NCBI GenBank assembly: GCA_903895695.1
Contig: CAITUY010000047.1
Location: 10,397 to 74,396, forward strand
Direction of reading: 5' to 3'
Length of the DNA: 64,000 nt
From: an uncultured bacterium
Lineage (GTDB): Bacteria; Verrucomicrobiota; Kiritimatiellia; CAIKKV01; CAITUY01
Positions within the stretch are counted from its first letter, which is position 1, and the number at the start of each line of letters is the position of its first letter. Position numbers and translations under genes: made by a program. Positions 19,396-39,270 of the stretch are shown here, one piece after another. Under the pieces are notes generated by a model. The model worked only from the letters and a program-made list of their open reading frames with translations, made no database searches and was not told where the DNA came from.

Positions 19396-20481
19396 TTATC
19401 GCTTCCGCGTCGTCGCCCCCTCAATGAACGCGGGCACCAACTCAACGGGCTTGCCGTGCAGACCGCCCAGCCGGTCCAGCACGCACTGCGCCAGGGCTTC
19501 ACCATGGGCGATAGGGTCCATCTCGACGCGGGTCAGCGGTTTGGAGAAGACCGGTCCGAGTCCCTTGTTAGCCCACGAAATAACCTGCACGTCTTCCGGA
19601 ATGCGAAGGCCGCGGGAGGCCATCGCGAGCAACGCTCCGCGGGCTGCAAAATCGTCGCCGAACCAGATCAGGTCGGGCAGCGTCGGCCCCGTCGCCAGCC
19701 AGCGCTCCACGGCCTCCAGAGCGCCGCGCTCCACCCGCTCCGGCGAGCCGTATCCGGGCAAGTCATTGAACAGAAGGTCATCGACAATCAGGCCGGCATT
19801 CCTCAGCGTGGGGCCGACGTCAAACGACGGCTTCGGATCCGTCACCTGGAGAACGCGGCGCACGCCGCACGCGAGACAATGATCGCGCAAGGCCAGCAGC
19901 ACAGCATCCCGACGCACCGCGACCGACTGCACGGCGTGCCGGGAACACCGGCTCTCGATCTGATTGAATTCGATAAAGGCGACCTCCCGCTCGGCCAGGA
20001 TGGGCTCCAGCAGAGACGGGTTGCCGTCGATCACGGCCAGCGAGACGGCATGCGTCAGCGCGGCGCGCGCTTTGGCCAGGGCCATGGTAGGTTCGACGCC
20101 GAGTTCCACGGTACTGACCAGGACGTTCGCGGCATGGAGCCGGTCAACCAGCGCGGCGCTCAACATGCTCTGGTAGTACATGCGCGCGCCGGCGATGCTC
20201 ATGTATAGCACATGCCCACGCCACGTCTTCAACTTGGTACTGCACACGGTGATGCCGGTGCGGGGACGGGGATTCAAAAGCCCCTCGCGGGTCAGGCGCT
20301 GGACCGCGTGGCGGGTCACGATTTCACTCACCTTGAGGGCCACCGCCATCTCCTCCAAATTCGGAAGCTTGGCGCCAACCTTGTATTGTCCCGTGATCAC
20401 GGCACGGCGCAATCCGTCCGTTACCTGGTCCGTCAGACTGGTTCGGCTTTGTTTCGACACTTCGAATGGCATGCTGTGCAT
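19396..20481 (-). CDS. AraR-like transcriptional regulator (GntR-type wHTH N-terminus + LacI/periplasmic-binding-protein-type sugar-binding C-terminus)
   Basis: N-terminal HTH TDGLRRAVITGQYKVGAKLPNLEEMAVALKVSEIVTRHAVQRLTREGLL, then a LacI-type ligand-binding fold. The six-frame ORF (to 20577) extends in-frame into a copy of the RHS leader repeat; the real start is probably Met33/Met36. Confidence 0.6.
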   Translation of the reverse strand: MHSMPFEVSKQSRTSLTDQVTDGLRRAVITGQYKVGAKLPNLEEMAVALKVSEIVTRHAVQRLTREGLLNPRPRTGITVCSTKLKTWRGHVLYMSIAGARMYYQSMLSAALVDRLHAANVLVSTVELGVEPTMALAKARAALTHAVSLAVIDGNPSLLEPILAEREVAFIEFNQIESRCSRHAVQSVAVRRDAVLLALRDHCLACGVRRVLQVTDPKPSFDVGPTLRNAGLIVDDLLFNDLPGYGSPERVERGALEAVERWLATGPTLPDLIWFGDDFAARGALLAMASRGLRIPEDVQVISWANKGLGPVFSKPLTRVEMDPIAHGEALAQCVLDRLGGLHGKPVELVPAFIEGATTRKR

Positions 20482-20580
20482 AGATCTAATTCCAGATTCG
20501 CACCCGTTGAAACGGGGGTATGCGGTTTTCGATCTACGCAAGGCCGTGCGGCCGAGCGGTGTGAGGTGGTAGGCCATGGT
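20479..20580 (-). repeat. truncated copy of the RHS-core 3' leader repeat (MAYHLTPLGRTALRRSKTAYPRFNGCESG…) with no attached CT domain
   Basis: ~90% nucleotide identity to the first ~90 nt of the ten cassette ORFs, including the conserved ctgaccATG start context; it diverges after the GCESG codons into the regulator gene. Confidence 0.7.
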
Positions 20581-20592
20581 TACTGCGTCAGG

Positions 20593-21072
20593 TCATTTGG
20601 CAATTGTCGAGACGCGAGGTTGAGTGTCGTAGCGGTGGCCAACCACGATCACAACATCGTCTGGCGTGCCACCCCGTCCGTCCCCTCCAACTGACATCAG
20701 CACAACTTCGCCGTTTCGTCTCACGCAGACAATGGGTCTATTCCAACCATCCACGAACCTATCGGTGTCGACCGTAACTGTCTTTAGAAGCACTGCTACC
20801 TCCTGAGTCCCCGTGACAACCGAGTGGAGCACATTCGTATGCGTTCCAAAAATATAGTCGAGATATTCCAGGTTGCGGACAGTCCGATAGTCCGCACCCT
20901 CAAGTCGCCCACCGACGAGTCGTGTGTACCGAATCGCGCACCACAGAACGACCGTTACCACCACGACCGCGACACTAATCGCTTTACCGAATGTCGCATT
21001 CCGTCCCTGTAGTATCGTCATTGCAGAGTCCACTGAAGCACGCTTCTCACGGGCCGCATCCATCTGACACAC
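20593..21072 (-). CDS. putative immunity protein (membrane-anchored) for cassette 21155..21913
   Basis: Small ORF immediately downstream of a toxin cassette on the same strand; one TM helix (ISVAVVVVTVVLWCAI); no homology recognised. Confidence 0.4.
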   Translation of the reverse strand: MCQMDAAREKRASVDSAMTILQGRNATFGKAISVAVVVVTVVLWCAIRYTRLVGGRLEGADYRTVRNLEYLDYIFGTHTNVLHSVVTGTQEVAVLLKTVTVDTDRFVDGWNRPIVCVRRNGEVVLMSVGGDGRGGTPDDVVIVVGHRYDTQPRVSTIAK

Positions 21073-21154
21073 TCACGGGCACCCCTGCTCGCGCCGATGT
21101 GACCGGCCCGACCACCCTGCATGTCAAGCCTCTGCGGCAACCTTCATACCGCGA

Positions 21155-21913
21155 CTAGAACGTCTTGTCACCGTTCGTGACTGGCCACCACGATTTCGTA
21201 AACGTCCGTGCCCCTCGATTGTCACGGTATTGGGTGACTTCGACTCCCCATTTCACCATCTTTATGACCGCCCCGCTTTCAGTACCCTTCGTACAAATAA
21301 CCTGGGTAAACATGTCAGACTTAAAATGAACGACCGGTGGATCGCGCAGTCGCACTATAACGTCCGGCCTCGGGAAATACTCATACAGGCCAGGCATATC
21401 GAGCATCATGTGATAGAATCGTTGGGGCTTGTCACTGTCGTCGTAGTAAGTGCCGCCGTGGAGGTGGTCTTTGTAGTATTCGCCCGGCGTCGGTGCTCGG
21501 CCATCGTCCCAAAACTGATAGTCGCGGGCATCCTGTTTGAAGTCGGGAAACTCACAGACGCAATCACATTTCTCATGATCTAGTTGGGCGCTGATCACGA
21601 CAACCACGATGCCCTTATAGGCGGCTGACCTTTCCAAGCCGTCTATTATCCGAATTGTAAACTTGGAGGCATTCACGCACTGTCTCAACTTGTCACTCCA
21701 ACACCCCAGCATGTCCACGCCGTTTTCACAGTCATTTTCCGCAAACTGATAACAGTTTCTGCCCCCTGCTTCCCCAATCGGATCGCGACTCACCCAGCGT
21801 CCTAGTCCTGGCGAGAAGAAACGGAAACCAGATTCGCACCCGCTGAGACGGGGGTATGCGGTTTTTGGGGTACGCAAGGTCGTGCGGCCGAGGGGTGTGA
21901 GGTGGTAGGACAT
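21155..21913 (-). CDS. orphan RHS C-terminal toxin cassette (RHS core tail + variable CT domain)
   Basis: N-terminus MSYHLTPLGRTTLRTPKTAYPRLSGCESGFRFFSPGLGRWVSRDPIGEAGGRNCYQF…DMLGCW matches the last YD repeat and DPxGL tail of RHS cores; unique 190-aa CT. Confidence 0.65.
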   Translation of the reverse strand: MSYHLTPLGRTTLRTPKTAYPRLSGCESGFRFFSPGLGRWVSRDPIGEAGGRNCYQFAENDCENGVDMLGCWSDKLRQCVNASKFTIRIIDGLERSAAYKGIVVVVISAQLDHEKCDCVCEFPDFKQDARDYQFWDDGRAPTPGEYYKDHLHGGTYYDDSDKPQRFYHMMLDMPGLYEYFPRPDVIVRLRDPPVVHFKSDMFTQVICTKGTESGAVIKMVKWGVEVTQYRDNRGARTFTKSWWPVTNGDKTF

Positions 21914-22108
21914 GGTCGACTATTCTCGTGACGGCAACTGATGGGATCGGGCTGTCCCTGCGACGCTTCGTTCAATCCCTATTCTCTATTCTTGGGCCTT
22001 CCAACCCCCGTACCCCTATCTTCTGTCTTCTCGGGCTGACACTGGCGCCCCATTATTCCACTTTGTCACCCTTGTCAGCACCCGACCCCACTCGCGGGCT
22101 ACACAGTT

Positions 22109-22444
22109 TCACACGAAGACCAACTGAAACAGAAGGAATGCAAGAAGAAGCACCGCAGGGCACAACGGGGATGCCTGCTCGCGGCGATACAGGGACATCA
22201 ACCACGCGAAACTTCCTGCAATGATCGAAACTATGGCGACAACATGGGCAGACGCTCCTGAGTGTATCTCCTTCTCAATGGTCAAGTGCAATTGATTTCG
22301 CTCCACAGAGGCGAGCGTAACGGATCTTGCGGCAAGCAAGGCACCGGCAGAGTCGTGACGTTTGCCTTCAATATCCACGATTATCGCGATCAGCAACAGA
22401 CTACAGGCCACCATGAACAACGGCTTCACGGGTGGGCACCTCAT
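22109..22444 (-). CDS. putative immunity protein (polytopic small membrane protein) for cassette 22441..23139
   Basis: ATGA start/stop overlap with the upstream toxin; 3 predicted TM segments. Confidence 0.45.
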   Translation of the reverse strand: MRCPPVKPLFMVACSLLLIAIIVDIEGKRHDSAGALLAARSVTLASVERNQLHLTIEKEIHSGASAHVVAIVSIIAGSFAWLMSLYRREQASPLCPAVLLLAFLLFQLVFV

Positions 22445-23139
22445 TGGCCAATAAGGGCGTCACCACATGCCTCCTGCGCAGAGACAGCACAGGCTTCACG
22501 TCCCACCCCAATAGGACAGTAATGGTGTGCGATCTCGTGGATCAGCAGAGATGCTAGTCCACTGCTCCCCAATTCCTTGCACTGACTTGCACATACGCCT
22601 ATGCCAAACCCAGGCAGCGTCCAAGTTGGGAAACCCAAAATACACGGAATCATCCAGTCTCCGTGGCACGTGATCGTATATCCCGGTATCCAATCGGTAG
22701 ATCCCCCTCCGCCTCCCGAGAAATCGTGACCGTGATCCTCAAACCATTTCCTGCATTTCCCCTTTGGTATGGCAGCATCGACGATTTCCGCCGCCTGCCT
22801 CACTTCCGGACAGCACTTACAGCCGCCAAATTCATGCAGACCTTCTGGGTCTGTCAGTACAGTCGGTTGATTATGCACGAAGAGATACCGCGGCTCCTGC
22901 GACTGATGCTTGATCCGTTCTCGATCCTCTCGCCGGATTCCCCTGCTTCGCGTTTGCAGAAGTGCCTCATCCCCAATTGGGTCGCTGCTCATCCACCGCC
23001 CCATTCCTGGCGAGAAGAAACGGAAACCAGATTCGCACCCGCTGAGTCGGGGGTAAGCGGTTTTCGGGCTACGTTCGTACGCGTACTCCGGCGAGGTACG
23101 CAAGACCGTGCGTCCGAGGGGTGACAGGTGGTAGGGCAT
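22441..23139 (-). CDS. orphan RHS C-terminal toxin cassette with HExxH (zinc metallopeptidase-like) CT domain
   Basis: Leader MPYHLSPLGRTVLR…(8-aa insertion SPEYAYER)…GCESGFRFFSPGMGRWMSSDPIGD…DPEGL; the CT contains LIHEIAHHYCP (HExxH). Confidence 0.6.
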   Translation of the reverse strand: MPYHLSPLGRTVLRTSPEYAYERSPKTAYPRLSGCESGFRFFSPGMGRWMSSDPIGDEALLQTRSRGIRREDRERIKHQSQEPRYLFVHNQPTVLTDPEGLHEFGGCKCCPEVRQAAEIVDAAIPKGKCRKWFEDHGHDFSGGGGGSTDWIPGYTITCHGDWMIPCILGFPTWTLPGFGIGVCASQCKELGSSGLASLLIHEIAHHYCPIGVGREACAVSAQEACGDALIGQ

Positions 23140-23240
23140 GGTCAGTGCGTCAGTTCATTTGCCGATTATCAAGATGCTGGGTGGTCGGCCCAGGTTCAAT
23201 TCGGGAAGCCCGTCCGGTCATAAATGGTCGGCAACAGTTT

Positions 23241-24062
23241 CTACTCGCCCGCCCCTTTGATCGGGGACTGCTGGCCCGCCTCCCAATCGCCTCCTATCTC
23301 TGGAGGCACTTCAAATGACTCTACCGTTTCATTTGTCGTACCAAGTAGACTGCGAAAACGGTCACGCAACGCGTTCATTCCACCTGTTGTTTGATTGAGG
23401 TGCTCAAGAACCAAAGGCCAACTTACTTTTTCCTCATCCGACTTCGTCCAGTTCGTCACGCCAAGATCGAACACCGAATTCACCGGGTCATACGGTTCGG
23501 TATAGGCACAGAACCAATTTGTCACTGATGTTTGCCGCAAGAACAAGAGATACACCTCCCCCGAAACCTTCAAATGAAGCGAACTTGGAGGGTTGGCAAT
23601 GAGGGCCCTCCGAATCTCATTAGTAACTCCGCGCCTCAGATAGAACATATTTATCGCCTCGCCATCGCGGGCGTTCTTGAGACCTTCGATCACGTCAATC
23701 CTGGCCCTACACACTTCAAACGGGTATCCACGTAGCGTTGGATATGTCAGGAATATGCACCCCCCCGTCGCGCCAAGCCGCGCAACCCTCCCCACGACAA
23801 CTTTGTCTGCCCTCCGCACAAGTGTCTCCGCACTCTCGCGTTGCTCACCCCTCGCAAGTGCATACGAGCCACCCACGCCGTAGCAGACTACCCCAATCAC
23901 GAATGATGCCACCATGTGTCTTAGGCTTGCCATTTCGTCTATCATCGTCCTTGTCACTCTGGCCACATAGACCTGCCGCATGCAGGAAGTCTGTTCGATG
24001 CTAATGATCAGTAAATGCTTCTTGTCACTTGAGTTGGGGAGTTGCCACTGCAGCAGTTCCAT
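23241..24062 (-). CDS. putative immunity protein for cassette 24008..24742 (start likely internal, ~23981 or 23945)
   Basis: Directly downstream of the toxin cassette; hydrophobic segment MVASFVIGVVCYGVGG; the called N-terminus overlaps the toxin's 3' end. Confidence 0.4.
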   Translation of the reverse strand: MELLQWQLPNSSDKKHLLIISIEQTSCMRQVYVARVTRTMIDEMASLRHMVASFVIGVVCYGVGGSYALARGEQRESAETLVRRADKVVVGRVARLGATGGCIFLTYPTLRGYPFEVCRARIDVIEGLKNARDGEAINMFYLRRGVTNEIRRALIANPPSSLHLKVSGEVYLLFLRQTSVTNWFCAYTEPYDPVNSVFDLGVTNWTKSDEEKVSWPLVLEHLNQTTGGMNALRDRFRSLLGTTNETVESFEVPPEIGGDWEAGQQSPIKGAGE

Positions 24063-24742
24063 CTCGCCATCAGTGAGCGGTGGATGACATCACCAGAGGG
24101 AGGCGGCAATATTGGATCTTCATTTACTACCCCAGTGTCTCCACCTGAAGGCGAACGTGGATCGTGTGGCCAGTTTGATGTATCAAGCCTATCGTAGTAG
24201 GCGACAGTACCCGTATAGAGCACGTATCCTTTGGAGCATGGCAACCCTCCCGGATCGCTAAAGGCCCATGTATCACGGGGAGGGTCGTCCATGCTCGCAT
24301 CGACGATAGACCACGCCTCCCAATAGTGTTGGTCGGGATCATTGATGGGGTGACCTTGGCAGTCGGTAATTGAAGACGTCATGGTCATCTCTTGAACGAC
24401 GGAACCCCATAGAGGCGAAGGACCTCGCACTTTCCACAACACTGACCACGAAAAGTGGCCACAGTCATCCGGAATGAACACGAGGTCATCCACCGAAAAG
24501 GACAACGAAGTCCCCCCGAGAATAGTCTGCTTACCCGTTCTATCGCACTTTTGCACACTATTGTTCTCGCAGATTGAGAACAGGTTGAGTCCACCTCTTT
24601 CCCCAATCGGATCTCGCGACGCCCACCGCCCGATCCCCGGCGAGAAGAAACGGAAACCAGATTCGCACCCGGTGAGACGGGGGTATGCGGTTTTCGATCT
24701 ACGCAAGGCCGTGCGTCCGAGGGGTGTCAGGGAGTAGGTCAT
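24008..24742 (-). CDS. orphan RHS C-terminal toxin cassette
   Basis: Leader MTYSLTPLGRTALRRSKTAYPRLTGCESGFRFFSPGIGRWASRDPIGERGGLNLFSI…; unique CT. Confidence 0.65.
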   Translation of the reverse strand: MTYSLTPLGRTALRRSKTAYPRLTGCESGFRFFSPGIGRWASRDPIGERGGLNLFSICENNSVQKCDRTGKQTILGGTSLSFSVDDLVFIPDDCGHFSWSVLWKVRGPSPLWGSVVQEMTMTSSITDCQGHPINDPDQHYWEAWSIVDASMDDPPRDTWAFSDPGGLPCSKGYVLYTGTVAYYDRLDTSNWPHDPRSPSGGDTGVVNEDPILPPPSGDVIHRSLMARWNCCSGNSPTQVTRSIY

Positions 24743-24757
24743 GGTCAGCGCGTCAGT

Positions 24758-25207
24758 TCATTCGTCAATTGTGGAAACATGCCCCTGTGGCTTCCGATCT
24801 CTCAGGTTGACGCTCATCAGATAATCCGTAATTGCGGGATTATCGCCACTCCGGGAGAACTCTTGGACTCGATCCCAATACCTCGATCCTTCTACTATCG
24901 CAAGAAGCGAACTAGCACGTTTCGACTTAGCTTCAATGAGTATCTGATAGACAGGGACAAGCAACAATGTTGCCGTCTCACGTTCACGTCGGTCTTTAGA
25001 ACGCAGTTTCGTCGTCAAATACCGAATTCCAGAATCGTTCACAAATGGGAGCACAAGTCTCGCGACTTCTGCCGCGTCAATCTCACCAGGAGACTTCCTC
25101 AAGGACCAGTAGTCATTCGCTTCTGACATGGCCTTGTCGTATCGGTGGGCCACACACCCTGTCATCACAATCCACAGAGGCAAGAGCAAGAACAGCGTCA
25201 TCTTCTT
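24758..25207 (-). CDS. putative immunity lipoprotein for cassette 25227..25889 (the six-frame ORF extends artefactually to 25546)
   Basis: Probable start MKKMTLFLLLPLWIVMTGC (lipobox LxxC) ~20 nt downstream of the toxin stop. Confidence 0.45.
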   Translation of the reverse strand, partial: KKMTLFLLLPLWIVMTGCVAHRYDKAMSEANDYWSLRKSPGEIDAAEVARLVLPFVNDSGIRYLTTKLRSKDRRERETATLLLVPVYQILIEAKSKRASSLLAIVEGSRYWDRVQEFSRSGDNPAITDYLMSVNLRDRKPQGHVSTIDE

Positions 25208-25226
25208 CATGGGGATTGGGTTCCTA

Positions 25227-25889
25227 CTAATTTGAATTAGTATCGTCCCAATCAGTTCCCAAGTCCTCGAACGGCGTACAGGTTTCGCCTTGGGGGCAAC
25301 ACTGGCTAGACTCACCCGTGGACTCAAAATGGTAGTACTGTTTGCCCCCTGGCCCTTTACCCAGGGAGACCTTAGTTTTGCGGTAGTGCCTCCAGAAGAA
25401 CCAATAACGGAAACTAATCCACATTTCTTTCGCAGGAGACATGCAGATGCATTGGTCCCAACCATACGGAATGCCAGGCCCGCCCGGCGAGATCTCCCCT
25501 CTGAATGATCTTGTCTTGCACTGGCCATCGCCCCCGCAAGTCGCACCCTCGCTTAAGCAGTACCGCTGAAGAGGAGCATTGTTACATGCACAACCGTTAT
25601 CCTGCATCACGAGGCCAAGCAGATCCCAACGAGATTCTCCATTGTTACTGAGAAAATCATAATCATTCGCCCCTCTGGAAACGGTCATGGCGTCAACCCG
25701 TTTGCGGACGCTCTGAGCCACAAATGCAAATTTGAAGAAAGTGTGCTCCCACATCGGATCCCGGCTGCACCAGCGACCCACGCCCGGCGAGAAGAAACGG
25801 AAACCAGATTCGCACCCGTTGAAACGGGGGTATGCGGTTTTCGCGGTACGCAAGGCCGTGCGTCCGAAGGGTGTGAGGGAGTAGCTCAT
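25227..25889 (-). CDS. orphan RHS C-terminal toxin cassette (Cys-rich CT)
   Basis: Leader MSYSLTPFGRTALRTAKTAYPRFNGCESGFRFFSPGVGRWCSRDPMWE…; CT rich in Cys/Gly (…GCACNN…CGGDGQCKT…QCICMSP…CCPQGETC). Confidence 0.6.
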   Translation of the reverse strand: MSYSLTPFGRTALRTAKTAYPRFNGCESGFRFFSPGVGRWCSRDPMWEHTFFKFAFVAQSVRKRVDAMTVSRGANDYDFLSNNGESRWDLLGLVMQDNGCACNNAPLQRYCLSEGATCGGDGQCKTRSFRGEISPGGPGIPYGWDQCICMSPAKEMWISFRYWFFWRHYRKTKVSLGKGPGGKQYYHFESTGESSQCCPQGETCTPFEDLGTDWDDTNSN

Positions 25890-25899
25890 GGTCAGCGCC

Positions 25900-26574
25900 C
25901 TACCAACTTCTCAACCACAGGTTCGATAGGAAATAGTCAGAGACGATCCCGCGTTGCGTGTAGTACACAGCCAAATACCAACCCTCCAATGCAGACGCCC
26001 CTCCCTCCGGATGACGGTTCTGAACGACATCCGCGAAACTCACGCATGCTTTGCCGATCCCCTTTTCCAGGCCATAGTCATCGGCATCAGGACCGAAGAT
26101 CGTCTTGATAGTCGACATACGCGTTCCAACACGCAGCGACTTACTGTCTAGTAGCGAAACACAGAATGCCAGCTTGTCGTGGCGGTTGCTGCATCCCAGG
26201 TACTGCACCTTCAGTATCTCCGCGCTGGTGTCGGCCTTCGTGAGGTGACCGTATACCTCGCCTAAGACGGGCGCCTTACTTACCGCCCTGACGGCATGTA
26301 TGCCTTCCGGACTTTGAACCGTGTCTTGACCCGCTGCATGGCGGGTGAGTGCCGCGCAACCAAAGCCAATCATAATCATGGCCGCAACTCCGCATGCGTC
26401 CAGCGCACACCGAAGTATCGTTGAGGCCAAGTGACCGTCACTATCTCGGTCAGTTGTCATCAGGCGTAGGTATCTGGTGTTTGGGCGTTTGAATGCAGGT
26501 GGCTCCGTATATGGTGGCAGGAAAGCCGGGGGGCTTCGGCATCTTTCTGCATATGGTGAACCATTGCTCTTCAC
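25900..26574 (-). CDS. putative immunity protein for cassette 26450..27235 (start likely internal, ~26460)
   Basis: Downstream partner ORF; signal/TM-like stretch ILRCALDACGVAAMIMIGFGCAAL. Confidence 0.4.
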   Translation of the reverse strand: MKSNGSPYAERCRSPPAFLPPYTEPPAFKRPNTRYLRLMTTDRDSDGHLASTILRCALDACGVAAMIMIGFGCAALTRHAAGQDTVQSPEGIHAVRAVSKAPVLGEVYGHLTKADTSAEILKVQYLGCSNRHDKLAFCVSLLDSKSLRVGTRMSTIKTIFGPDADDYGLEKGIGKACVSFADVVQNRHPEGGASALEGWYLAVYYTQRGIVSDYFLSNLWLRSW

Positions 26575-27235: not shown

Positions 27236-27296
27236 GGTCAGCGGGTTAGAGCGTTTGCGTCTTGCGAGAATTGGTGCAGTTGCCTGTTGGCTTTAT

Positions 27297-31151: not shown

Positions 31152-31174
31152 TTCCGTTGCGTTGCTGAATGTTA

Positions 31175-32220: not shown

Positions 32221-32436
32221 TCAACCCGGCGTCGGAGTTTGGCCCTTGGCCCGGTCGAATATCTCGTCCACCGTCTGCCCGTCGTAGAGGCGCCGGGAGA
32301 CATCCACGTAGTCGGTCGGTTCGCGGTGGATCAGGGTGAGAAACCGAAACGCACCTGTTGCACCCAAGGCCTTGTTGAGGACCTCAATGCCGCTCAGGCG
32401 CAGTTCGTTATCGGTCATGACTTGGCTTGTGCTCAT
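32221..32436 (-). CDS. small protein downstream of the PIN gene, possible antitoxin/partner
   Basis: 71 aa, 5 nt after the PIN-domain ORF on the same strand; no family recognised. Confidence 0.3.
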   Translation of the reverse strand: MSTSQVMTDNELRLSGIEVLNKALGATGAFRFLTLIHREPTDYVDVSRRLYDGQTVDEIFDRAKGQTPTPG

Positions 32437-32440
32437 ATCC

Positions 32441-32938
32441 TCACCATCTCTTCTGCACGTAGTCTACAGGATTAATGACCAGAAGCGCAACCGGCAAACG
32501 GCCAGCCTTGGACACGATCTCGTCATCACAGGTCACAAACCACGCTGCTTTCGCGTGTTCGGCAGCAGCAACGTGCAAGGCATCCTTGGCCGACAGCCCC
32601 GCCACGGCCTGAATCCGAGCCGCGGATATGCGAATGGGTTCTTCTGGGCCTATTCGGACGCGGCAGATTGCGGCAAGGCGGACGACTTCCTGTGCACGGT
32701 CAACGAAAGGACACACCCGGTTCTCGTCCTCGTGCATAAACGACCACGCCAATTCCACCTCACCGTTCTCGGCATCCTCGAAGATCTTCTCGCAGGCTTC
32801 CGCCTCCAAACGGATACGATGCTGCCGGGAGTCGTCAAACCCCCGCTGGAAGCAGTTGTAGTCGAGATAGATGAGTTCCGCCATGTCGAGTACCCCGTGC
32901 CGAACGTGGTTACGATAGTATGGACTCTTCCTGGTCAC
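32441..32938 (-). CDS. PIN-domain protein (VapC-like ribonuclease candidate); likely start MAELIYLDYN (~32881)
   Basis: N-terminal MAELIYLDYNCF… and acidic residues spaced as in PIN/VapC folds. Confidence 0.45.
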   Translation of the reverse strand: MTRKSPYYRNHVRHGVLDMAELIYLDYNCFQRGFDDSRQHRIRLEAEACEKIFEDAENGEVELAWSFMHEDENRVCPFVDRAQEVVRLAAICRVRIGPEEPIRISAARIQAVAGLSAKDALHVAAAEHAKAAWFVTCDDEIVSKAGRLPVALLVINPVDYVQKRW

Positions 32939-33896
32939 AAGCCTCTTTCTCCCTTGGATGGCACTTGCGGTGGGTCTCTTTGAGGTCGGTGATGGTGAGC
33001 TTGGCGTAGTGCTTGAGCGTCTCCAGCGACTCGTGGCCGAGCAGTTCCTTCACGTGGTACATGCCGGCCCCGGCCCGCAACAGCTCGGTCGTGCAACTGC
33101 GGCGGAAAGTGTGGGGCGTGACGTTGACGTCGATGCGGGCCTGTTCGGTCAGCCGGTGCACAAGTTTGAGGAAGACGCCGTACTTGACCCGCTCGCCCGC
33201 CGCGGTGACGAAGAGGGCCTGCTCGTCGCCCGTCGGGAATGCTGGCCTGACTCCTTTGACGTACCCTTCGAGGTAGTGCATGGCCGTGCGGCCGATCGGC
33301 ACCATGCGTTCCTTCTGGCCCTTGCCTTTGACGCGGGCCAGCCCGTGGGCGTAGTCGACGTCGCCCAGGTCCAGCCCCAGCAGTTCCGAGACCCGCGCCC
33401 CGCTCGAATAGACCAGTTCCAGCATGGCCCGGTTGCGGTAGCCCTCCGCCCCGTTGGTCGGCACCACGTCCAGCAGCCGCCGCACTTGCTCGTGGGTCAG
33501 CACGCTGCCCGGCAGGGTCTTGGGCTCCTTCACGTACTCGATGCCGTCGGACAACCGCGACTGGATATGGCCCTGCACGGCCAGGTACTTGAGGAACGAG
33601 CGCAGTTCCTGGACTTGCTTGTTGATGGTGCGGGGGTTGAGCGGCCGCCCCTTGCGGGTCCGCCGCCGGGACAAATGTCCCTGCCAGCGCTGGAGGTGGC
33701 TGGCCCGCAACAGGTCGGGCGAGTACACGCCCACCGTCACCCCGAGCCACTGCGCCCAGTTCCGCAGGTCGTTGTTGGCCTGCTTGCGCGTCCAGGCGCT
33801 GAAGTTGAGCGCGCCCAGGTGCCGCACGTATTCGTCCAGTAGTTCGAGGAAAGTCGTCATAGTCGCATCCTCACGATCCCGGTTTGCTCCGGGCAT
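32910..33896 (-). CDS. tyrosine site-specific recombinase (XerC/D-phage integrase family)
   Basis: C-terminal catalytic signature …VTPHTFRRSCTTELLRAGAGMYHVKELLGHESLETLKHYAKL (R…HxxR…Y); N-terminal SAM-like core-binding domain. Confidence 0.8.
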   Translation of the reverse strand: MPGANRDREDATMTTFLELLDEYVRHLGALNFSAWTRKQANNDLRNWAQWLGVTVGVYSPDLLRASHLQRWQGHLSRRRTRKGRPLNPRTINKQVQELRSFLKYLAVQGHIQSRLSDGIEYVKEPKTLPGSVLTHEQVRRLLDVVPTNGAEGYRNRAMLELVYSSGARVSELLGLDLGDVDYAHGLARVKGKGQKERMVPIGRTAMHYLEGYVKGVRPAFPTGDEQALFVTAAGERVKYGVFLKLVHRLTEQARIDVNVTPHTFRRSCTTELLRAGAGMYHVKELLGHESLETLKHYAKLTITDLKETHRKCHPREKEACDQEESILS

Positions 33897-34827
33897 GAAC
33901 CGCCTGCAATTCCGTGATCGTCAGGCGCAGGTACTGGGACAGGTGACTGAACGAGGCATGGCCGAGGAGCATCTGCAGGTCCACCGGGTGGGCGCCGCGG
34001 CGCAACATGTGCGTGGCGCAGGCCCGCCGCAAGCTGTGCGGCGTGATGCGCGTCTGCACGCCCGAGTCGCGTCCATGCCTCACGATGCCGAGCCGGATGG
34101 CCACATATCCGAGCGGCTTTCCATACTGCGTCACCCAGAGCTCAGGCGGCCTGCCGCCCGCGGCCGTCCTCTTCCCGACCTCGGCCTCGTACCGCCGCAG
34201 CCACTCCACCGCCTGGGCGCCCAGCGGCAGGACCCGCTCCCGCTCGCCCTTGCCCATCACGCGCACGGTCCCGTTCACCATGTCCACGTCCCGGACCATA
34301 AGCCGGGACAGTTCCTCGACGCGCATGCCCGTGCCGTAGGCCGTCTCCAGGATGGTCCGATCGCGCAGTCCCGTGTAGGTCGTGGTGTCCGGCGTCGCCA
34401 GCAGGCTCGTCATCTCCTCCTCGGTAGGCACCGGCATGATGGGCGACTGAATCTTGCGGATCACGATGCCCTCCGCCGGGTTGCAGAACACTTCCTGCGT
34501 CTGCTCCAGCCAGCGGAAGAACTGCTTGATGGCACGGATGAAAACCTCCACCGAGGCGGGCTTCCACTGCCGGTCCACCATGCCGGCGCGGTATTCCTCG
34601 ATGTCCGAGCGCGTCACGTCCATGGCCCGCACGATGCCCTTACCATCCAGGAACGCGCAGAACCGTTCCAGCGCCTGCGTATAGATCTCGACGGTCCGCC
34701 GGCTGTACCGCCGTGAGGCCACGCGCTCGGCGTAACGCCTGACGAGTACGGCTACACGACTACTGCTACGACTATGTGTTGCATCCATATGCGCTCCCCG
34801 CACCACTTTCGACCAGGTTATTGCCAT
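33871..34827 (-). CDS. tyrosine site-specific recombinase (second, overlapping the first)
   Basis: …ITPHSLRRACATHMLRRGAHPVDLQMLLGHASFSHLSQYLRLT; overlaps the downstream recombinase by ~25 nt, consistent with translational coupling. Confidence 0.8.
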   Translation of the reverse strand: MAITWSKVVRGAHMDATHSRSSSRVAVLVRRYAERVASRRYSRRTVEIYTQALERFCAFLDGKGIVRAMDVTRSDIEEYRAGMVDRQWKPASVEVFIRAIKQFFRWLEQTQEVFCNPAEGIVIRKIQSPIMPVPTEEEMTSLLATPDTTTYTGLRDRTILETAYGTGMRVEELSRLMVRDVDMVNGTVRVMGKGERERVLPLGAQAVEWLRRYEAEVGKRTAAGGRPPELWVTQYGKPLGYVAIRLGIVRHGRDSGVQTRITPHSLRRACATHMLRRGAHPVDLQMLLGHASFSHLSQYLRLTITELQAVHARSKPGS

Positions 34828-37147
34828 CCGCCTGCATTTGAGGCACTTGGACCGATTCCACGGGGTGGCCAGGTGCTGACCACCCTGTGACCACCCCCGC
34901 CGCTGCCATCGAGGTGGCCTGTCCGTCGTACGCCAGGCGGTAACGGTAGGTGAGCCCGACGCGCCCGGCCACGGTCAGGACGAACTCCATCTCGACCAAC
35001 TGCTTGAGGTAACGGCGCACGCGGAGATGGGCCCAGCCGGTGAACTCGCGGATCTCCCGGCGGGAGAACACCACGTCGCCGGGCACTTCCACGCCATCGC
35101 GCCCCTCCCGCCGCTGTTGCTCGATCCTGCCGGCCACCATGCGTTCGATGTGCATCAGCAGGTCCAGGCTCACCCGGTTGAGGTCGTCCAGGCTCTTGCC
35201 CAGGATCTCCCGCGCCAGCCCGTCGGCAACGGCCAGGTCCGCCGCTTCCACCTCGATGTAGTCCCGGCCCTCGTCCTGCCGGACCTGCTTCGACATCTGC
35301 CGCAGGAACGCCACGGCCCGGATCAGGTTCAGGTACTTAGGCTGGTCGCGCCGGCTCTGCAGTCGGTCGTCGCCGTAGCAGAGCTGTTCGGCGAACGGGT
35401 TGACCACCTTGACGGGTTTCAACAGCCGCTGGAAGTTGCGGTGTAACCGCAGCGTCGCCTCACGCCCCCCGCGCTCCTTCTCGCCATCGAGGGTTTGGCG
35501 CCTGCGTTGGCAGGCGAGGATCGCCCGGGTCTGCTCCCGGCTCTCGTCCACACTCGTTACGAAGAACCGACTGCGGGTCTCGGGGTCGGTCTCGGGATCG
35601 GTCGTTGTGATGAAGACCGCGGTCGGGCCTTCCACGCGGTTCACCGCGGTCGTGAGCTTGCCGGTGGCGAAGTCCTTGACGGTCACCTCGATCACCAGTT
35701 CCCCGGCCGAGATCAAGTTGCGGATCGCGTACGTGGCGTCCTCCGCCCCCGCCCCTTCCTCCAAGGCGAGGATCTTGTGCTTGAGGCTCTGCCGGGCCTT
35801 GTAGAAGAGCGCCTTACCGGACAGGCTCGTCAGCTTGACCGAGTCCTCCGGCGGACAGAACGCGAGCGTCGCGTCCTGCAGCGCCGACTTGCCGGCGCCC
35901 GAACTGCTTAGGATCAGCACGGACAGCGGATGGTCGGTCTTCCGGCTGACGGCGGCCAGGTAGCAGAGCAACTTGTTGACCTCCTCGCCCACGAGCCCGC
36001 ACGCGGCGTAGTCGGCGACGATACGTTCGATCAGGTCCGGGCTGCGCCCGAAGGCTTCCGCCTCCCGGCGCTCCTCCTCCGGGATGTCGACCGTCTCACC
36101 CGCGTCCGCGGCCGACGCAGACGGCACGTGGGTTTCGCAACAGCGGATCAGCCGCACCAGGTCCGCCTCGATAGCCTCGGTGGTCTCCTCGAAAAACCGG
36201 CACAGATCCTGGGCCAGCGTTTTGCGGGCCTTGGCCGAGTAGAAGTCGAGCGTGTCCACGTGCAGTCGGCCGGCGTGCTCTGTCCTGAGCGTCGCTCGCA
36301 GCCGCCTTGGTCCCTTGTCGATCCCGCGCAACTCATAGCGGCGGCGGTCGAGCCGCACGCGGAACCCGTCGGGTATGGGCTCAGTCGCCGAGTCCGGCCC
36401 GGCTGACGGCTGCCCGGTGTCGAATTCGGCCAGGGCCGCATCCACGAGCGCGGTGACGCGCGGGAGTCCGTCGCGCAGGAGGACGGCATTGAGCGGCTCG
36501 GCAAGCGGACAGGCCCGGATGGCGACCGGCAATCCCGAGAAGGTTTCCCGCAGTGAGTCGGCATTGACGGCCAGGCACGCGAGTCGCTGTACGCCGCTCG
36601 CGCGGATCGCCTGGCGGTCGCGCGCGGTGAGACGGCCCTCCGGCACGGCGACGGCGTTGGGATACCCCGCCTTCTGGAGCGTGAGAGCGTCGAGGATGTC
36701 CAGCGTCGCGAGCACCTCCCCATGGGTGCGGAACACGGGTGCGTTCCAGAGCCCCGTGGCGACGCCCGGCAGGTGGACCGCCTTCCCGGTCGCCATGCAA
36801 AGGCCCGCAAGCCCGATCGCCAAGCCCTCGACATCCGCCAGCGGGAAGACGACGCAGTCGCGGAACCGCTCCTTGCCGGACTCATCGAGGATGTTCATCG
36901 ACCTGAGTACGTCGCGGATGCCGCCCTGGCGTGGCAGCGTCCCGACAAGTTTCCCCGTGGCGCAGCCGATCCGGAACTGACCGGCCAGGTCGGAATCGTT
37001 CAGGCCATGGCGGGCAAGAAAGCCCGGCCCTTCCGGCTCCTTGGTCAGCGTCTCGTGGTAGAACCCCGCGACCTTCTCCCACAGGGCCGCCTGCTCACAA
37101 AGCGGACCTCCCTCCGGCCTTCGTGGCATGTCCGTCCTCCCGTTCAT
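34772..37147 (-). CDS. large P-loop NTPase, putative TOPRIM primase/replication-type protein of the integrative element (six-frame ORF extends to 37273)
   Basis: Walker A LSSSGAGKSALQDATL; N-terminal region with a possible TOPRIM-like E…DxD arrangement (ADVEG…DILDALTL); operonic with a Zn-ribbon protein and two tyrosine recombinases. Confidence 0.4.
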   Translation of the reverse strand: MNGRTDMPRRPEGGPLCEQAALWEKVAGFYHETLTKEPEGPGFLARHGLNDSDLAGQFRIGCATGKLVGTLPRQGGIRDVLRSMNILDESGKERFRDCVVFPLADVEGLAIGLAGLCMATGKAVHLPGVATGLWNAPVFRTHGEVLATLDILDALTLQKAGYPNAVAVPEGRLTARDRQAIRASGVQRLACLAVNADSLRETFSGLPVAIRACPLAEPLNAVLLRDGLPRVTALVDAALAEFDTGQPSAGPDSATEPIPDGFRVRLDRRRYELRGIDKGPRRLRATLRTEHAGRLHVDTLDFYSAKARKTLAQDLCRFFEETTEAIEADLVRLIRCCETHVPSASAADAGETVDIPEEERREAEAFGRSPDLIERIVADYAACGLVGEEVNKLLCYLAAVSRKTDHPLSVLILSSSGAGKSALQDATLAFCPPEDSVKLTSLSGKALFYKARQSLKHKILALEEGAGAEDATYAIRNLISAGELVIEVTVKDFATGKLTTAVNRVEGPTAVFITTTDPETDPETRSRFFVTSVDESREQTRAILACQRRRQTLDGEKERGGREATLRLHRNFQRLLKPVKVVNPFAEQLCYGDDRLQSRRDQPKYLNLIRAVAFLRQMSKQVRQDEGRDYIEVEAADLAVADGLAREILGKSLDDLNRVSLDLLMHIERMVAGRIEQQRREGRDGVEVPGDVVFSRREIREFTGWAHLRVRRYLKQLVEMEFVLTVAGRVGLTYRYRLAYDGQATSMAAAGVVTGWSAPGHPVESVQVPQMQADGNNLVESGAGSAYGCNT

Positions 37148-37157
37148 GTCGCCAACC

Positions 37158-37574
37158 CTAGGCGCGAATTTCCCAACGGGCCACGAAGTTTTGTAACGTA
37201 AGACCCACATCGCGCCAGACCCCACGCCAGTCGCGGATTCCCGCGATAACGACGTGTCGTAACGCAAAACCATCCAAGTCTCGGAACCTCACACCGACCG
37301 TGTTTTGACCGGCGCGATGAATTGGAAGCAGAATGTCCACCGTGAACGCCTTCCGCCTGTCCTGCCGCCAGTAGAACGGATGAAGCCGCCGCCAGGCCTG
37401 GCTGCGGTCGATGTCCTTCTTGAAGTGGTCGGGGTTCTTCCGCCGCCATTGCCGGCAGTTCTCCCGGTTACGCGCCCGCTGGCACACCCGACGCGGGCAG
37501 TACCGCTGGTGCCAGGCGTTGTGGGGTTCAGGCTGGAACAACTTCCGGCAATGCGGGCAGCGCAGCGGTTTCAT
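37158..37574 (-). CDS. small Zn-ribbon (CxxC…CxxxxC) DNA-binding-like protein
   Basis: MKPLRCPHCRKLF…YCPRRVC; basic; first gene of the element operon. Confidence 0.4.
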   Translation of the reverse strand: MKPLRCPHCRKLFQPEPHNAWHQRYCPRRVCQRARNRENCRQWRRKNPDHFKKDIDRSQAWRRLHPFYWRQDRRKAFTVDILLPIHRAGQNTVGVRFRDLDGFALRHVVIAGIRDWRGVWRDVGLTLQNFVARWEIRA

Positions 37575-37966
37575 GAGTCGACCTCCTTTGGCCCCGCGTC
37601 AGACGGAGCGGGGGAATCGCCATACCTTAGGGGGAAGTCAATACGACAGGAGCCGCTGCCGACGCGAGAGCGGCAATGGCGGGATTCGTCCGGACGAGAG
37701 GTAGGCAACGCCTATTCCGTCAGCCAGGCCACCAACCGAGCCGTAGACCCGGATGAGCCCTATGACCGCACCGGTAAATCGGGGGAGGAACAAAAGAAGG
37801 ATCATCCGTCCGACGCCGGCGTAGTCATCGAACTGTTACGACGAAGCCGACAAGAAACATCGCACGACGGAACCGGGGATTCCTACGACCGTAGCGCTGG
37901 AATCAAGGTCGTTTCCAGCAGGTTTAATTCGGAAACCGCGTGCGACGGCAATTCGGTCGACAGTAG

Positions 37967-38467
37967 TTAACGTCGCAGGCGATCTGCAAGGCGCGTTCTG
38001 ATGCTCTGCCATGTCTGCCGGTCCACGTTTCGCCTTGAGCCGGTTTCATCAATGGCGGTTAGTTCCGGGTGCCACACCGGACACATGATCCGAACGCCTT
38101 CGGGTGTGTTTGTGAAGTATAGATATGTGATTCTTAGTGAAGTGGCCCCATTGCTTGGTCCCACCCACGGAGCCTCGATCTTCTCGAATTGCGGACTGTT
38201 CGCTAGGGCACAGGAGAAAATCCACGTTCGATTCGTTGCAAGCGGGAGAAGGTCGGAAAGACTGGCGGGGCGGACGCCGTGCGCTTCTTCATACTGTCGG
38301 CAGAGTTCCCCTAAAGCCAGGGTATTCGCTGCGCAAAGTTGGTAGAGCGCGCCATGGGTGCTCCTCTCTCGCCGAATATACAGGCACTGCCCTATGGCGA
38401 ACCAGCACAGGACAGCAAACACAAAGACGGACAAGAGCGACTTGATGACGGACGATGGAGAAGGCAT
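37967..38467 (-). CDS. putative immunity protein, pseudopilin(GspG)-like, for cassette 38470..39270
   Basis: Starts 3 nt after the toxin stop; N-terminal TM LLSVFVFAVLCWFAIG; shares …Y..HG..P.SLSDL(L/M)P with 28557..29060. Confidence 0.4.
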   Translation of the reverse strand: MPSPSSVIKSLLSVFVFAVLCWFAIGQCLYIRRERSTHGALYQLCAANTLALGELCRQYEEAHGVRPASLSDLLPLATNRTWIFSCALANSPQFEKIEAPWVGPSNGATSLRITYLYFTNTPEGVRIMCPVWHPELTAIDETGSRRNVDRQTWQSIRTRLADRLRR

Positions 38468-38469
38468 CG

Positions 38470-39270
38470 CTATTGCCTCCTTCTGTCACGCCCTCCCCCA
38501 CCCGGCCAAGTCGGTCCCAAGCCGGAATTGCAGTATTTCTGGTCGCACGGCTTGCAGTCTGCATAGCGATCATCGGCCGGGACACTCCCGGAGCTGGGAA
38601 ATCCGTTGAACCCGGCCTTGGCAAAATCTATGGAATTAGCCACTTCCGGCCAGTCCGATGGCTGAAACGACTTCCAGGCGACGATAGCTGCCTCCATCTG
38701 CACTGTCGAGGCGTCGCACAACTTCGCCATCCATCCGAATAGAGCGTAGTTGACTGACCACTTCCAGTAGCAACTACCATTCACGGTCACGGACTCGGAG
38801 CACTTGCGGCCGAAGGGACACTGCGAAACGCCATCGGCACCTCGGATACGAGGATCGGCCCAGACCAGACTGGCCAGATCCCACCCACCGAATGCAAAGT
38901 CCGGGGACTGTGTCCAGTCCTTAAAGAACGGATCACAATTCGAAGCAGCACGTTTCGGGTCTGTCTGCTTCAGATCGTTGAAACGCTGTTCAACCTGCGT
39001 CTTCGATGCCTTCAATCCATCCGTAACGTCTGGCCCGCATTTCCAGCACGACTTGTTGAACCACCAATCCCACATGGTGGATAAACCGAAAGGGTCGTAC
39101 TTAGACAAAGGTTCGTTAAGCGCGAACCCGTATAGGTTGTAGTCGCGGTTAATCGTACGCCTGCGGTTATGCGCTCTGAATCCAAGTTCGCGGATGGGAT
39201 CACGACTCATCCATCTCCCGGTCCCTGGAGAGAAGAAAATGAGTCTATAATACGGAATATACGTTACCAT
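38470..39270 (-). CDS. orphan RHS C-terminal toxin cassette with degenerate/replaced 5' leader (Cys/Trp-rich CT)
   Basis: MVTYIPYYRLIFFSPGTGRWMSRDPIRELGFRAHNRRRTINRDYNLYGFALNEPLSKYDPFGLS… keeps the GRW.SRDP…NLYGF…DPxGL tail, but the first ~25 codons are replaced by an AT-rich sequence. Confidence 0.5.
   Translation of the reverse strand: MVTYIPYYRLIFFSPGTGRWMSRDPIRELGFRAHNRRRTINRDYNLYGFALNEPLSKYDPFGLSTMWDWWFNKSCWKCGPDVTDGLKASKTQVEQRFNDLKQTDPKRAASNCDPFFKDWTQSPDFAFGGWDLASLVWADPRIRGADGVSQCPFGRKCSESVTVNGSCYWKWSVNYALFGWMAKLCDASTVQMEAAIVAWKSFQPSDWPEVANSIDFAKAGFNGFPSSGSVPADDRYADCKPCDQKYCNSGLGPTWPGGGGRDRRRQ
39228..39270 (-). promoter_or_regulatory. AT-rich segment with sigma70-like -35/-10 (TTGAAT-N16-TATTAT on the minus strand) at the head of the array
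   Basis: Minus-strand sequence TTGAATGGTAACGTATATTCCGTATTATAGACTC is ~30% GC in a ~65% GC background. Speculative; promoter consensus in this lineage is unknown. Confidence 0.2.

Follow-up and report, generated by a model that had tools for sequence, protein, structure and literature searches.

The DNA analysed here, a 64,000-nt stretch of contig CAITUY010000047.1 (the window), contains an island of low guanine-plus-cytosine (GC) content, about 18.8 kb long (about 20492-39270, minus strand), within a glycan-degradation locus of a bacterium of the Planctomycetes-Verrucomicrobia-Chlamydiae (PVC) superphylum. The island consists of rearrangement hotspot (RHS) cassettes, in which the last segment of an RHS protein, a unique putative toxin domain, and a small putative immunity open reading frame (ORF) follow one another, and it lacks the tyrosine-aspartate (YD)-repeat shell of a full-length RHS protein. 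The repeat unit is a composite of a DNA-type leader and a protein-type tail, and the island is physically and evolutionarily linked to a module encoding two tyrosine recombinases and a primase-like protein. The overall reading presented here, a shell-less RHS plug-toxin-immunity island whose cassettes are exchanged site-specifically in the manner of integrons or of rAID arrays (recombinase-associated acquired interbacterial defence), stands at even chances: the exchange is read from the arrangement of the sequences and is not proven.

The island is bordered by a GHL10-like hydrolase gene on one side and a GntR-type regulator on the other, and every gene of relevance is encoded on the minus strand. 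The array has a GC content of 53-58%, compared with about 65% in the flanks and the genome. A preliminary description of this DNA, made from its letters and overlooking the recombinase and primase-like genes within its own coordinates, and thus their conserved linkage to such arrays, had counted ten co-oriented ORFs that share an N-terminal block. The array is real, but the accurate count is nine complete units (T9 to T1, ORFs of 215-261 aa), one leader-only copy, and one leader-less unit (T10). A 38-nt core of the block has ten minus-strand copies between 20492 and 31774, the only ones in the 64 kb (0 expected in 100 shuffles); repeat finding and alignment recover the same copies. The repeat family is genuine and greatly exceeds chance expectation. 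The tenth copy (20492-20577) comprises only the first 86 nt of the block and runs in frame into a GntR/Peripla_BP_3 regulator. The array is also discontinuous, for the 5.7-kb recombinase/primase module (about 32200-37600, 62-71% GC) separates T10 and its immunity ORF, I10, from the other nine cassettes.

Only residues 27-71 of the shared block are demonstrably RHS, as judged from profile matches and from alignments with solved shells. This segment, the tail, matches positions 32-76 of the 76 positions of NCBIfam TIGR03696 (Rhs_assc_core) in all ten ORFs (E 2e-12 to 5e-5; in T10 the match lies at aa 7-63), and residues 28-71 of T5 align to the extreme ends of solved cocoons (YenC2 647-691, RHS2 646-689, TccC3, and an Rhs family protein). 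The earlier proposal that the block holds an RHS core terminus is thus borne out by the profile check, whereas its identification of the first 26 residues as the last YD repeat is not: the NCBIfam match stops at residue 27/28, and a profile-profile comparison with the matching part of full-length RHS proteins aligns columns 28-70 only. The tail corresponds to the cocoon plug and the aspartyl autoprotease that releases the toxin, as known from structural work on TcC and RHS proteins. Both aspartates at catalytic positions, D44 and D67, are invariant in the array, as is the motif GRW.S.DP. The DPxGL ending described earlier holds for its Asp, which is invariant, but the motif as a whole is degenerate in several copies (DPLGQ, DKDGR, DRTGK, DMLGC). 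The RHS portion of each cassette starts precisely where, in RHS proteins, the YD-repeat shell gives way to the C-terminal plug-autoprotease segment (the G of GFRF...GRW.SRDP...D..G).

No shell is encoded in the window. Neither the ten toxin ORFs nor the ten largest ORFs of the window match RHS_repeat or YD-shell families of Pfam (those of the largest ORFs with Pfam matches are glycan-degrading enzymes), and tblastn of the 64-kb window with three full-length RHS proteins, taken from the related loci L010, L012, and L013, finds only the ten tails, with matches that begin always at the same residue. Neither is there an N-terminal secretion or trafficking domain in the toxin ORFs, which begin 26-29 residues before the tail and have no Pfam domains. 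The label of orphan given to the array in the preliminary description is therefore right, and the toxins as they stand have no scaffold for encapsulation and delivery.

Beyond the tail, the C-terminal domains are mutually unrelated and without a Pfam or NCBIfam family, in agreement with the earlier account, and the reading frames of all ten toxins are open and of full length. T8 and T9 form the only paralogous pair available; their C-terminal domains are 32% identical and those of their neighbors I8 and I9 are 34% identical, which supports co-variation of the toxins with their putative immunity partners. A small unique ORF lies 3' of every toxin ORF, as had been reported, but the reported 4-nt overlap is limited to T2/I2, T6/I6, and T8/I8, with gaps or overlaps of 2-90 nt in the others. 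None of these small ORFs belongs to a Pfam family. The lipoprotein, transmembrane, and pseudopilin-like features ascribed to them apply to a subset: reading of the sequences reveals lipoboxes in I4 (MTGC) and I6 (LGGC) and N-terminal transmembrane segments in I1, I2, I3, I5, I7, and I10. I7 (28557-29060) and I10 (37967-38467) share, in addition to the transmembrane segment, the motif HG..P.SLSDL.P (I7 also PDPWGSPF), which resembles type II secretion pseudopilin-like proteins common in PVC bacteria. The C-terminal domain of T2 includes an HEIAHH motif suggestive of a zinc metallopeptidase. Outside the tail, T2, T5, and T10 have no sequence relatives in the PDB, and an exact-sequence look-up of T5 (P0005) found it not on record.

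A leader of about 29 codons, including the ATG, stands in for the shell in the nine complete cassettes, and its DNA is nearly identical between copies. Synonymous divergence (pS) among the copies in the window is 0.16 in codons 1-16, 0.09 in codons 17-29, 0.00 in codons 30-34, and 0.69 in codons 35-58, so that the block from codon 35 onward behaves as an old, protein-constrained region. The ratio of nonsynonymous to synonymous divergence (pN/pS) of the leader lies at 0.6-0.9 among the window copies and at 0.7-0.9 in the comparison between loci (all values are Nei-Gojobori estimates from non-independent pairs pooled over short regions and are rough). The combination of low pS with these ratios indicates that the leader is conserved or homogenized as DNA and is not selected as a peptide. 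Homogenization extends over about 110 nt with fuzzy 5' limits, and subsets of copies share a further 30-100 nt upstream. Residues 1-26 are not significantly RHS-like and lie outside the profile matches; a single gapped pairwise alignment with one RHS protein spans the leader (YHLTPLGRT/YEFDPYGNV, RWKTAYP/RFSTKYT), and derivation of the leader from a shortened last YD repeat is possible but not demonstrated. The exact leader DNA is absent from reference genomes and viral contigs and present in three metagenome contigs only, and a word-based protein search with the 71-aa block returned a single match.

A tRNA-like, Rfam, or other structured-RNA origin of the leader was considered and rejected (no tRNA, no Rfam family, and hairpins unconserved between loci). 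In three copies (24656-24673, 27149-27166, and 29728-29745, minus strand) the sequence ACCGGGTGCGAATCTGGT can form a seven-pair hairpin that ends exactly at the leader/tail junction and is followed by TTCCGTTTCT; the number of terminator-like sites in the region that includes these three matches equals the chance expectation. Many immunity ORFs end within or shortly before the stop/start motif TGACCATGG, whose TGA serves as stop codon and whose ATG opens the next leader, in the window as well as in L005, L010, and L012. I8 overlaps the leader of T7 (29799-29814), and such an immunity/leader arrangement would couple translation along the array. T2 (22441-23139, minus strand) has a 27-nt leader insertion (SPEYAYERS) and a longer tail, as does a cassette in the metagenome contig L002.

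The breakpoints of the system coincide at one codon, nt 85-87 of the leader ORF, which encodes the G of GFRF; three independent observations place them there. Up to this codon, the full-length RHS genes of L010 and L012 have 87% identity; beyond it they are unrelated through tail, toxin, and immunity gene, until homology returns within the recombinase module and extends to the stop codon of the recombinase gene nearest the cassettes (int1). In every locus, the profile of the shared block matches the full-length RHS protein from position 29 and the downstream cassettes from position 1-17. Finally, the terminal leader-only copy in the window stops at nt 86, within the same codon. Within a locus, unusual variants immediately past the junction are common to the main RHS gene and the first displaced cassette (e.g., GHRSY(S/W)PELGRW in L013). 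In L010, L012, and L013, the final 600 nt of the shell gene have no second copy; main gene and cassettes are homologous only from the G of GFRF onward, and no more than about 15-20 nt around the junction are common to both. The core homology on which classical C-terminal displacement depends to carry an orphan into the expressed gene is therefore absent. Population variation also falls at this point. In a sister-strain contig (L095), the 3' end of I5 and a T4-type leader are joined to a T6-like tail with a new C-terminal domain, and the entries P0002 and P0009 carry another leader variant before T3-like and other C-terminal domains; these junctions imply that leaders travel with the upstream unit while the downstream partners vary in the population.

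The module that divides the array is of a mobile type and lies between I10 and T9, and all of its genes are co-oriented with the array and have a GC content at or above genome level. It begins with a small Cys-rich ORF; in L022 and L043, too, ORFs of this kind with CxxC motifs stand before the primase-like gene. Homologues of the primase-like protein carry DNAG_N/MTBMA_p00010_2nd domains. The genes of the two tyrosine recombinases, Int2 and Int1, overlap, and Int1 is encoded nearest to the cassettes. The PIN-domain protein and its 71-aa partner that follow are probably a toxin-antitoxin pair, the position of which is held in other loci by PemK, NYN, or ParE-like modules. About 100 nt past a terminator-like hairpin, at the right end of the module, is the remnant of a leader of another subtype (MGYYKTAAF...; MGYYKTAAFPPP...), preceded by about 70 nt of conserved upstream sequence; the same upstream context heads a complete cassette in L010 and L012, so that in all three loci a leader with conserved upstream sequence stands directly after the module. 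Nothing convincing was found in a search for attachment-type direct or inverted repeats flanking the module. A phage origin of the module was rejected, as the primase-like protein has no relative in IMG/VR.

In the metagenome contig L006 (1-6774), a 4.4-kb stretch of the module (equivalent to 32206-36638) is 100% identical to the window and lies beside Iso_dh and ClpS genes, with the primase-like gene 5'-truncated to 622 aa; L006 and L007 both end at the equivalent of window position 32206, just past the terminator-like hairpin. The L006 copy could represent a further copy in the genome, an assembly chimera, or an assembly break at a repeat. In L062 (8180-10933), the primase-like gene is followed by three consecutive tyrosine recombinase genes, a trio in place of the pair.

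The linkage of the module to RHS cassettes extends well beyond the window. An exhaustive profile search of 1.84 billion representative proteins with the shared block yielded 142 matches at E<=1e-10. The best of these (about 130) are almost all proteins of 100-310 aa with the block at the very N-terminus, and they fall into several leader subfamilies (MGYHLT...TAYPRF, MSYFITDSE, MYLREKYRRPENAYPR, MVALAEPKTW, and MGYFLT...PKTHTP); long RHS proteins match block positions 28-71 only, and none carries positions 1-27. At least four independent metagenome loci (L010/L011, L012, L013, and the P0113 contig), and many genomes of the PVC superphylum, have the same gene order: a full-length RHS gene with a TEN_YD shell and its immunity gene; then a small ORF, the primase-like gene, two integrase genes, and a toxin-antitoxin-like module (PemK, NYN, or PIN); and then leader cassettes. 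A full-length RHS gene upstream of the cassettes is found in these loci and in L005, and is missing from the window. Among one-genome-per-species references, Int1 homologues occur in Verrucomicrobiota, Victivallales/Lentisphaerota, Kiritimatiellia, Planctomycetota, and Desulfobacterota, and relatives are PVC bacteria. An Int2-like gene lies directly upstream of the Int1 homologue in 40 of 51 genome loci, and a primase-like gene is located upstream in 26 of 36. A co-oriented RHS tail is present within 3.5 kb in 12 of the 27 genome loci in which the Int1 homologue is at least 44% identical and followed by at least 1.5 kb of sequence, compared with about 0.26 expected from the density on the opposite strand (2 matches in 738 kb). 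Nearly all tail matches (38/40) are co-oriented with Int1. The count of 12 is a lower bound, because the profile derives from one subfamily; L043, for example, has a tail remnant missed by the profile, beside a SUKH-like ORF.

Under the reading preferred here, the cassettes would be a reserve of exchangeable warheads and a standing set of immunity genes. Exchange at the shell/tail junction would occur by site-specific recombination catalyzed by the linked tyrosine recombinases, with the leader as the cassette-side arm of the recombination site, and the "tail-toxin-immunity-leader" unit would behave as an integron cassette whose site is the leader/tail junction. The island in the window would have landed, or been left, without a shell, in which case T10 (a tail without leader) and the terminal leader (without tail) would be complementary half-junctions. 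T10 begins with MVTYIPYYRLIFFSPGTGRW and is without the first 26 or so residues of the block; it occupies the place of the 3' end of the full-length RHS gene in related loci, with the GHL10-like hydrolase gene and not a shell upstream of it. Such a site-specific model explains why N cassettes are bounded by N+1 leaders, why T10 at one end has no leader and the leader at the other end no tail, and why a leader stands where the module ends on the right; it also explains the lack of core homology and the single breakpoint. A bolder version is put forward tentatively, as a proposal that may well prove too ambitious: the RHS genes of PVC bacteria and some Desulfobacterota would be served by a dedicated integron-like system, in which the recombinase pair and the primase-like protein excise "tail-toxin-immunity-leader" cassettes and insert them precisely at the shell/plug codon, so that the incoming toxin is fused in frame and arms the capsule, the displaced toxin gains a leader, and toxin switching is programmed and site-specific instead of arising from accidental homologous recombination.

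A number of observations weigh against site-specific exchange. No recombinase core site (inverted arms and a short spacer) could be defined, and the hairpin in copies from the window is not kept in other loci. The homogenized leader is long enough for RecA-mediated exchange among cassettes, which is possible and perhaps the source of the homogenization. T10 keeps about 6-8 shell-like residues (YIPYYR), and its tblastn alignment to the RHS proteins of L010, L012, and L013 starts 6 aa before the junction; the left border is thus no clean half-site, and it is accounted for just as well by the deletion of a shell gene once present. In L005, an RHS 3' end is followed by four leader cassettes with an insertion sequence and without the module. 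An RHS tail is detectable downstream of only about half of the Int1 homologues, and in L020, L022, and L030 the recombinases are followed by other cargo. The identical module beside Iso_dh and ClpS in L006 suggests that the module may simply be a mobile element favoring such loci. A search for an island-free site failed: the glycoside hydrolase gene identical to that in the window is always followed by T10 (L093), and the synteny of the nearest other genome (GCA_964506775.1, hydrolase 82%) differs. Finally, the C-terminal domains are putative toxins and the small ORFs putative immunity proteins, and no C-terminal domain belongs to a recognized family.

The best surviving alternative, possible though doubtful, is a classical orphan rhs-CT/rhsI array, assembled by C-terminal displacement and shuffled by RecA-dependent homologous recombination or gene conversion through the leader of about 110 nt, with the module as an unrelated integrative element that was inserted into, or hitchhikes with, a locus prone to recombination. 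The extent and fuzzy 5' limits of leader homogenization fit this explanation, as do the module-free L005 and the occurrence of the module in other contexts and with other cargo. Integrases near Rhs loci, with an unproven role, have been noted earlier (PMC5727410), and decayed integrase 3' remnants are common, as expected of a parasite. What such an array does not account for is the entry of a stored cassette into the expressed gene, which cannot proceed by homologous recombination when cassettes and shell share no DNA homology upstream of the junction. The recurrence of RHS gene, module, and leader cassettes in the same order and orientation across phyla, the inclusion of a leader in the conserved right end of the module, and the coincidence of breakpoints at a single codon also speak against it.

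In many PVC genomes (L075, L077, L080-L091, GTDB), all that is present of an Int1-like gene is its final 60-90 codons. L077 and L080 have a leader-tail ORF that breaks off after RDPLGEE and runs on into the 3' third of the integrase gene, with a PIN gene next, and in L088 and L091 an integrase remnant precedes a ParE/RelE-type pair and a decayed leader-tail. A PIN-type gene lies between two cassettes in L002 (882-1388, minus strand), and immunity-type ORFs with HEAT and ankyrin repeats follow cassettes in L010/L011 (L010 16542-19017), L012, and L002.

It is unlikely that the short ORFs are functional stand-alone proteins, with the Met-initiated leader as an export or targeting signal, or intracellular addiction modules of the toxin-antitoxin type that stabilize the island. 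The prevalence of 100-310-aa proteins with an N-terminal block among the best 130 or so matches, and the lack of any long protein with positions 1-27, are consistent with such a function, as are the conserved ATG, the stop/start coupling of immunity genes to leaders, and the intactness of all nine ORFs. Orphan Rhs toxins of Salmonella are reported to be capable of expression and of acting as toxin-antitoxin modules (PMC7043789), and orphans are transcribed in Snodgrassella alvi (PMC5727410). Against this, the leader has a pS below that of neighboring codons and the pN/pS of a sequence conserved at the DNA level and not as a peptide, and its sequence lacks a signal-peptide-like hydrophobic stretch. 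Gene-caller predictions are biased toward ORFs that start with ATG, and both autoprotease aspartates are kept, which is sensible only with a shell. An acquired immunity island, in which only the immunity genes matter (against the RHS toxins of neighbors) and the toxin ORFs are decaying leftovers, would accord with the missing shell gene, the degenerate DPxGL, and the rAID-1-like architecture of a recombinase and a co-oriented low-GC array with repeats (10.1101/471110), but is very improbable in its pure form because all ten toxin ORFs are intact and D44, D67, and GRW.SRDP are invariant, and rAID-1 arrays are described as immunity genes and not as toxin-immunity pairs.

Coordinates of the island and its right border are collected in the table.

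Table. Features of the island in the window, listed from the GHL10-like hydrolase side to the regulator side (an empty cell means that no entry is given).
Feature	Coordinates	Strand	Remarks
T10	38470..39270	minus	leader-less toxin ORF; RHS tail and unique C-terminal domain; TIGR03696
I10	37967..38467	minus	putative immunity protein; N-terminal transmembrane segment; begins 2 nt after T10 stop; no Pfam family
Small Cys-rich ORF	37158..37574	minus	138 aa; first gene of module; region 78% identical in DNA to L014
Primase-like protein	34772..37273	minus	833 aa; weak DNAG_N match; weak match to PDB DNA primase 5vaz
Int2	33871..34827	minus	tyrosine recombinase; Phage_integrase 9e-35; SAM-like N-terminal domain
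Int1	32910..33896	minus	tyrosine recombinase; gene nearest cassette array; Phage_integrase 2e-37
PIN-domain protein and partner	32221..32938	minus	PIN protein 32441-32938 (PIN 1e-5); 71-aa partner 32221-32436
Terminator-like hairpin	32209-32222		after PIN pair
Remnant leader	32024..32122	minus	ATG 32122; another subtype; right end of module
Cassettes and terminal leader	20492..31822	minus	nine cassettes (leader, codons 1-29; RHS tail, codons 30-71; toxin domain; immunity ORF each); leader-only copy 20492-20577
T9	31175-31822	minus	toxin ORF; ATG 31822
I9	30909-31151	minus	immunity ORF
T8	30134-30847	minus	toxin ORF; ATG 30847
I8	29799-30137	minus	immunity ORF
T7	29041-29814	minus	toxin ORF; ATG 29814
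I7	28557-29060	minus	immunity ORF
T6	27740-28492	minus	toxin ORF; ATG 28492
I6	27297-27743	minus	immunity ORF
T5	26450-27235	minus	toxin ORF; ATG 27235
I5	25900-26460	minus	immunity ORF
T4	25227-25889	minus	toxin ORF; ATG 25889
I4	24758-25210	minus	immunity ORF
T3	24008-24742	minus	toxin ORF; ATG 24742
I3	23241-23981	minus	immunity ORF
T2	22441-23139	minus	toxin ORF; ATG 23139
I2	22109-22444	minus	immunity ORF
T1	21155-21913	minus	toxin ORF; ATG 21913
I1	20593-21072	minus	immunity ORF
GntR-type regulator	19396..20481	minus	GntR helix-turn-helix (aa 49-111) and Peripla_BP_3 periplasmic-binding domain (Pfam)

The regulator at the right border is a chromosomal gene, and its ORF, as extended by the terminal leader, is 393 aa long with the helix-turn-helix domain from aa 49. 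In the alignment of regulator and leaders, similarity to the repeat is lost after GAATCTGG. As the island ends within about 10-20 nt of the regulator's own start, the promoter region of the regulator must have been displaced. The terminal leader copy provides the regulator with an ATG and 32 in-frame codons (19396-20577, minus strand). The flanks encode a BNR_2 sialidase, a SASA esterase, GH2, GH95, and GH106 glycoside hydrolases, and a heparinase (Pfam), and constitute a sialoglycan/mucin-type glycan locus; with PVC bacteria as relatives, the PVC-type sialoglycan setting given in the preliminary description is confirmed. Among the glycoside hydrolase genes is that of a 1985-aa protein (45972-51929, minus strand) with Gly_rich_2, G8, and InlB B-repeat-like domains, which probably represents a large surface protein that belongs to this locus.

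Warhead acquisition and swapping in polymorphic toxins are mostly attributed to homologous recombination through the conserved core, and how warheads are acquired has stayed vague ever since the C-terminal displacement model was put forward. In the present system, stored cassettes lack core homology and the junction is confined to one codon; the leader is conserved at the DNA level, and the recombinase module recurs across several phyla. The interest of the island lies in the conserved module and the precise, homology-free junction, which as patterns in sequence point to site-specific cassette exchange. If the recombinases act at the junction, the system would be an in-frame, protein-fusing analogue of the integron and a counterpart, in another phylum, of the rAID arrays of Bacteroidales. 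It would also be a testable toxin-switching system of two recombinases and a site of about 100 nt, possibly of use as a tool for in-frame cassette exchange. For this organism, a more modest reading is that about ten putative immunity genes and undeliverable putative toxins are kept inside a mucin/sialoglycan-foraging locus, a setting in keeping with habitats of the gut type that are dense and competitive.

There is a firm record of orphan rhs-CT/rhsI arrays and of C-terminal displacement (PMC2935791, PMC3150448, PMC3967940). Large orphan arrays are known, so that ten units, called unusual in the preliminary description, are not so in themselves: Snodgrassella alvi wkB2 has 18 Rhs genes in 3 loci, and bee-gut bacteria have large Rhs arrays with nearby integrase genes, for which no role is demonstrated (PMC5727410). 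The cassettes in the window resemble the orphans of Enterobacteriaceae and Snodgrassella in their co-oriented, truncated RHS 3' ends with a unique toxin domain and a cognate (here putative) immunity gene, in their position, in related loci, downstream of an rhs gene of full length, and as a reservoir of alternative toxin and immunity genes. To this extent, the comparison with displaced rhs-CT/rhsI modules made in the preliminary description stands, but it fails in several respects. In contrast to classical orphans, the swapped unit starts about 45 residues earlier and includes the plug/autoprotease tail; the cassettes have no DNA homology to the shell (core) and carry instead an ATG-initiated leader of about 29 codons at a fixed position; a module of two tyrosine recombinases and a primase-like protein is conserved between the expressed gene and the orphans; and the full-length rhs gene itself is missing from the window.

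The rAID-1 arrays of Bacteroidales include a tyrosine recombinase, co-oriented low-GC arrays of immunity genes only, and repeated intergenic motifs, and their mechanism is unknown (10.1101/471110, PMC12247911). The island shares with them a 5' tyrosine recombinase, co-oriented short genes, skewed GC content, repeats between units, and a connection to defence against interbacterial toxins. Ten repeats and the difference in GC between the array (53-58%) and the recombinase genes (65-71%) agree with the rAID-1 definition, which asks for at least two co-oriented downstream genes of lower GC content than the recombinase and for repeats between units, and of which the absolute value of 41% GC is inapplicable to this genome. 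Unlike rAID-1, where the immunity genes are orphans and the repeats intergenic, each unit here combines a toxin that has an RHS tail with an immunity gene, the repeat forms part of an ORF as its 5' end, two recombinases are accompanied by a primase-like gene, and the hosts are PVC bacteria. The rAID-1 definition also includes an XerD-like recombinase more than 44% identical to BF9343_RS08045 (10.1101/471110), whereas the Bacteroidales integrases matched by the Int1 profile are only about 27-32% identical; membership in rAID-1 is thus unlikely.

The likeness to integrons lies in an adjacent recombinase, in a repeat carried with each cassette, in the expectation that only the first cassette is expressed, and in the arrangement of N cassettes with N+1 repeats: nine cassettes are accompanied by ten leader copies, the last of which is followed by the unrelated regulator gene. 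In contrast to integrons, no IntI-type integrase is shown here, the recombinases are co-oriented with the array, and insertion would create a protein fusion and not a promoter-proximal gene. Neither is an attC-like hairpin conserved, as the stems in the window (CGCA..CCCG/CGGG..TGCG) are broken in the L005, L010, and L012 copies with no compensatory changes. A final comparison is with the TcB/TcC and RHS cocoons (YenC2, TccC3, RhsA; PDB 4igl, 4o9x, 7q97), which have the same final plug/autoprotease segment before a hypervariable toxin; in the island there is no cocoon, and only the last 45 or so residues are present. No description of the leader, the fixed shell/plug junction, or the RHS-module-cassette synteny in PVC bacteria was found in the literature, the coverage of which was incomplete and is no proof of novelty. 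Taken as a whole, the system shares features with classical orphan arrays, with rAID-1, and with integrons, and departs from the defining features of each.

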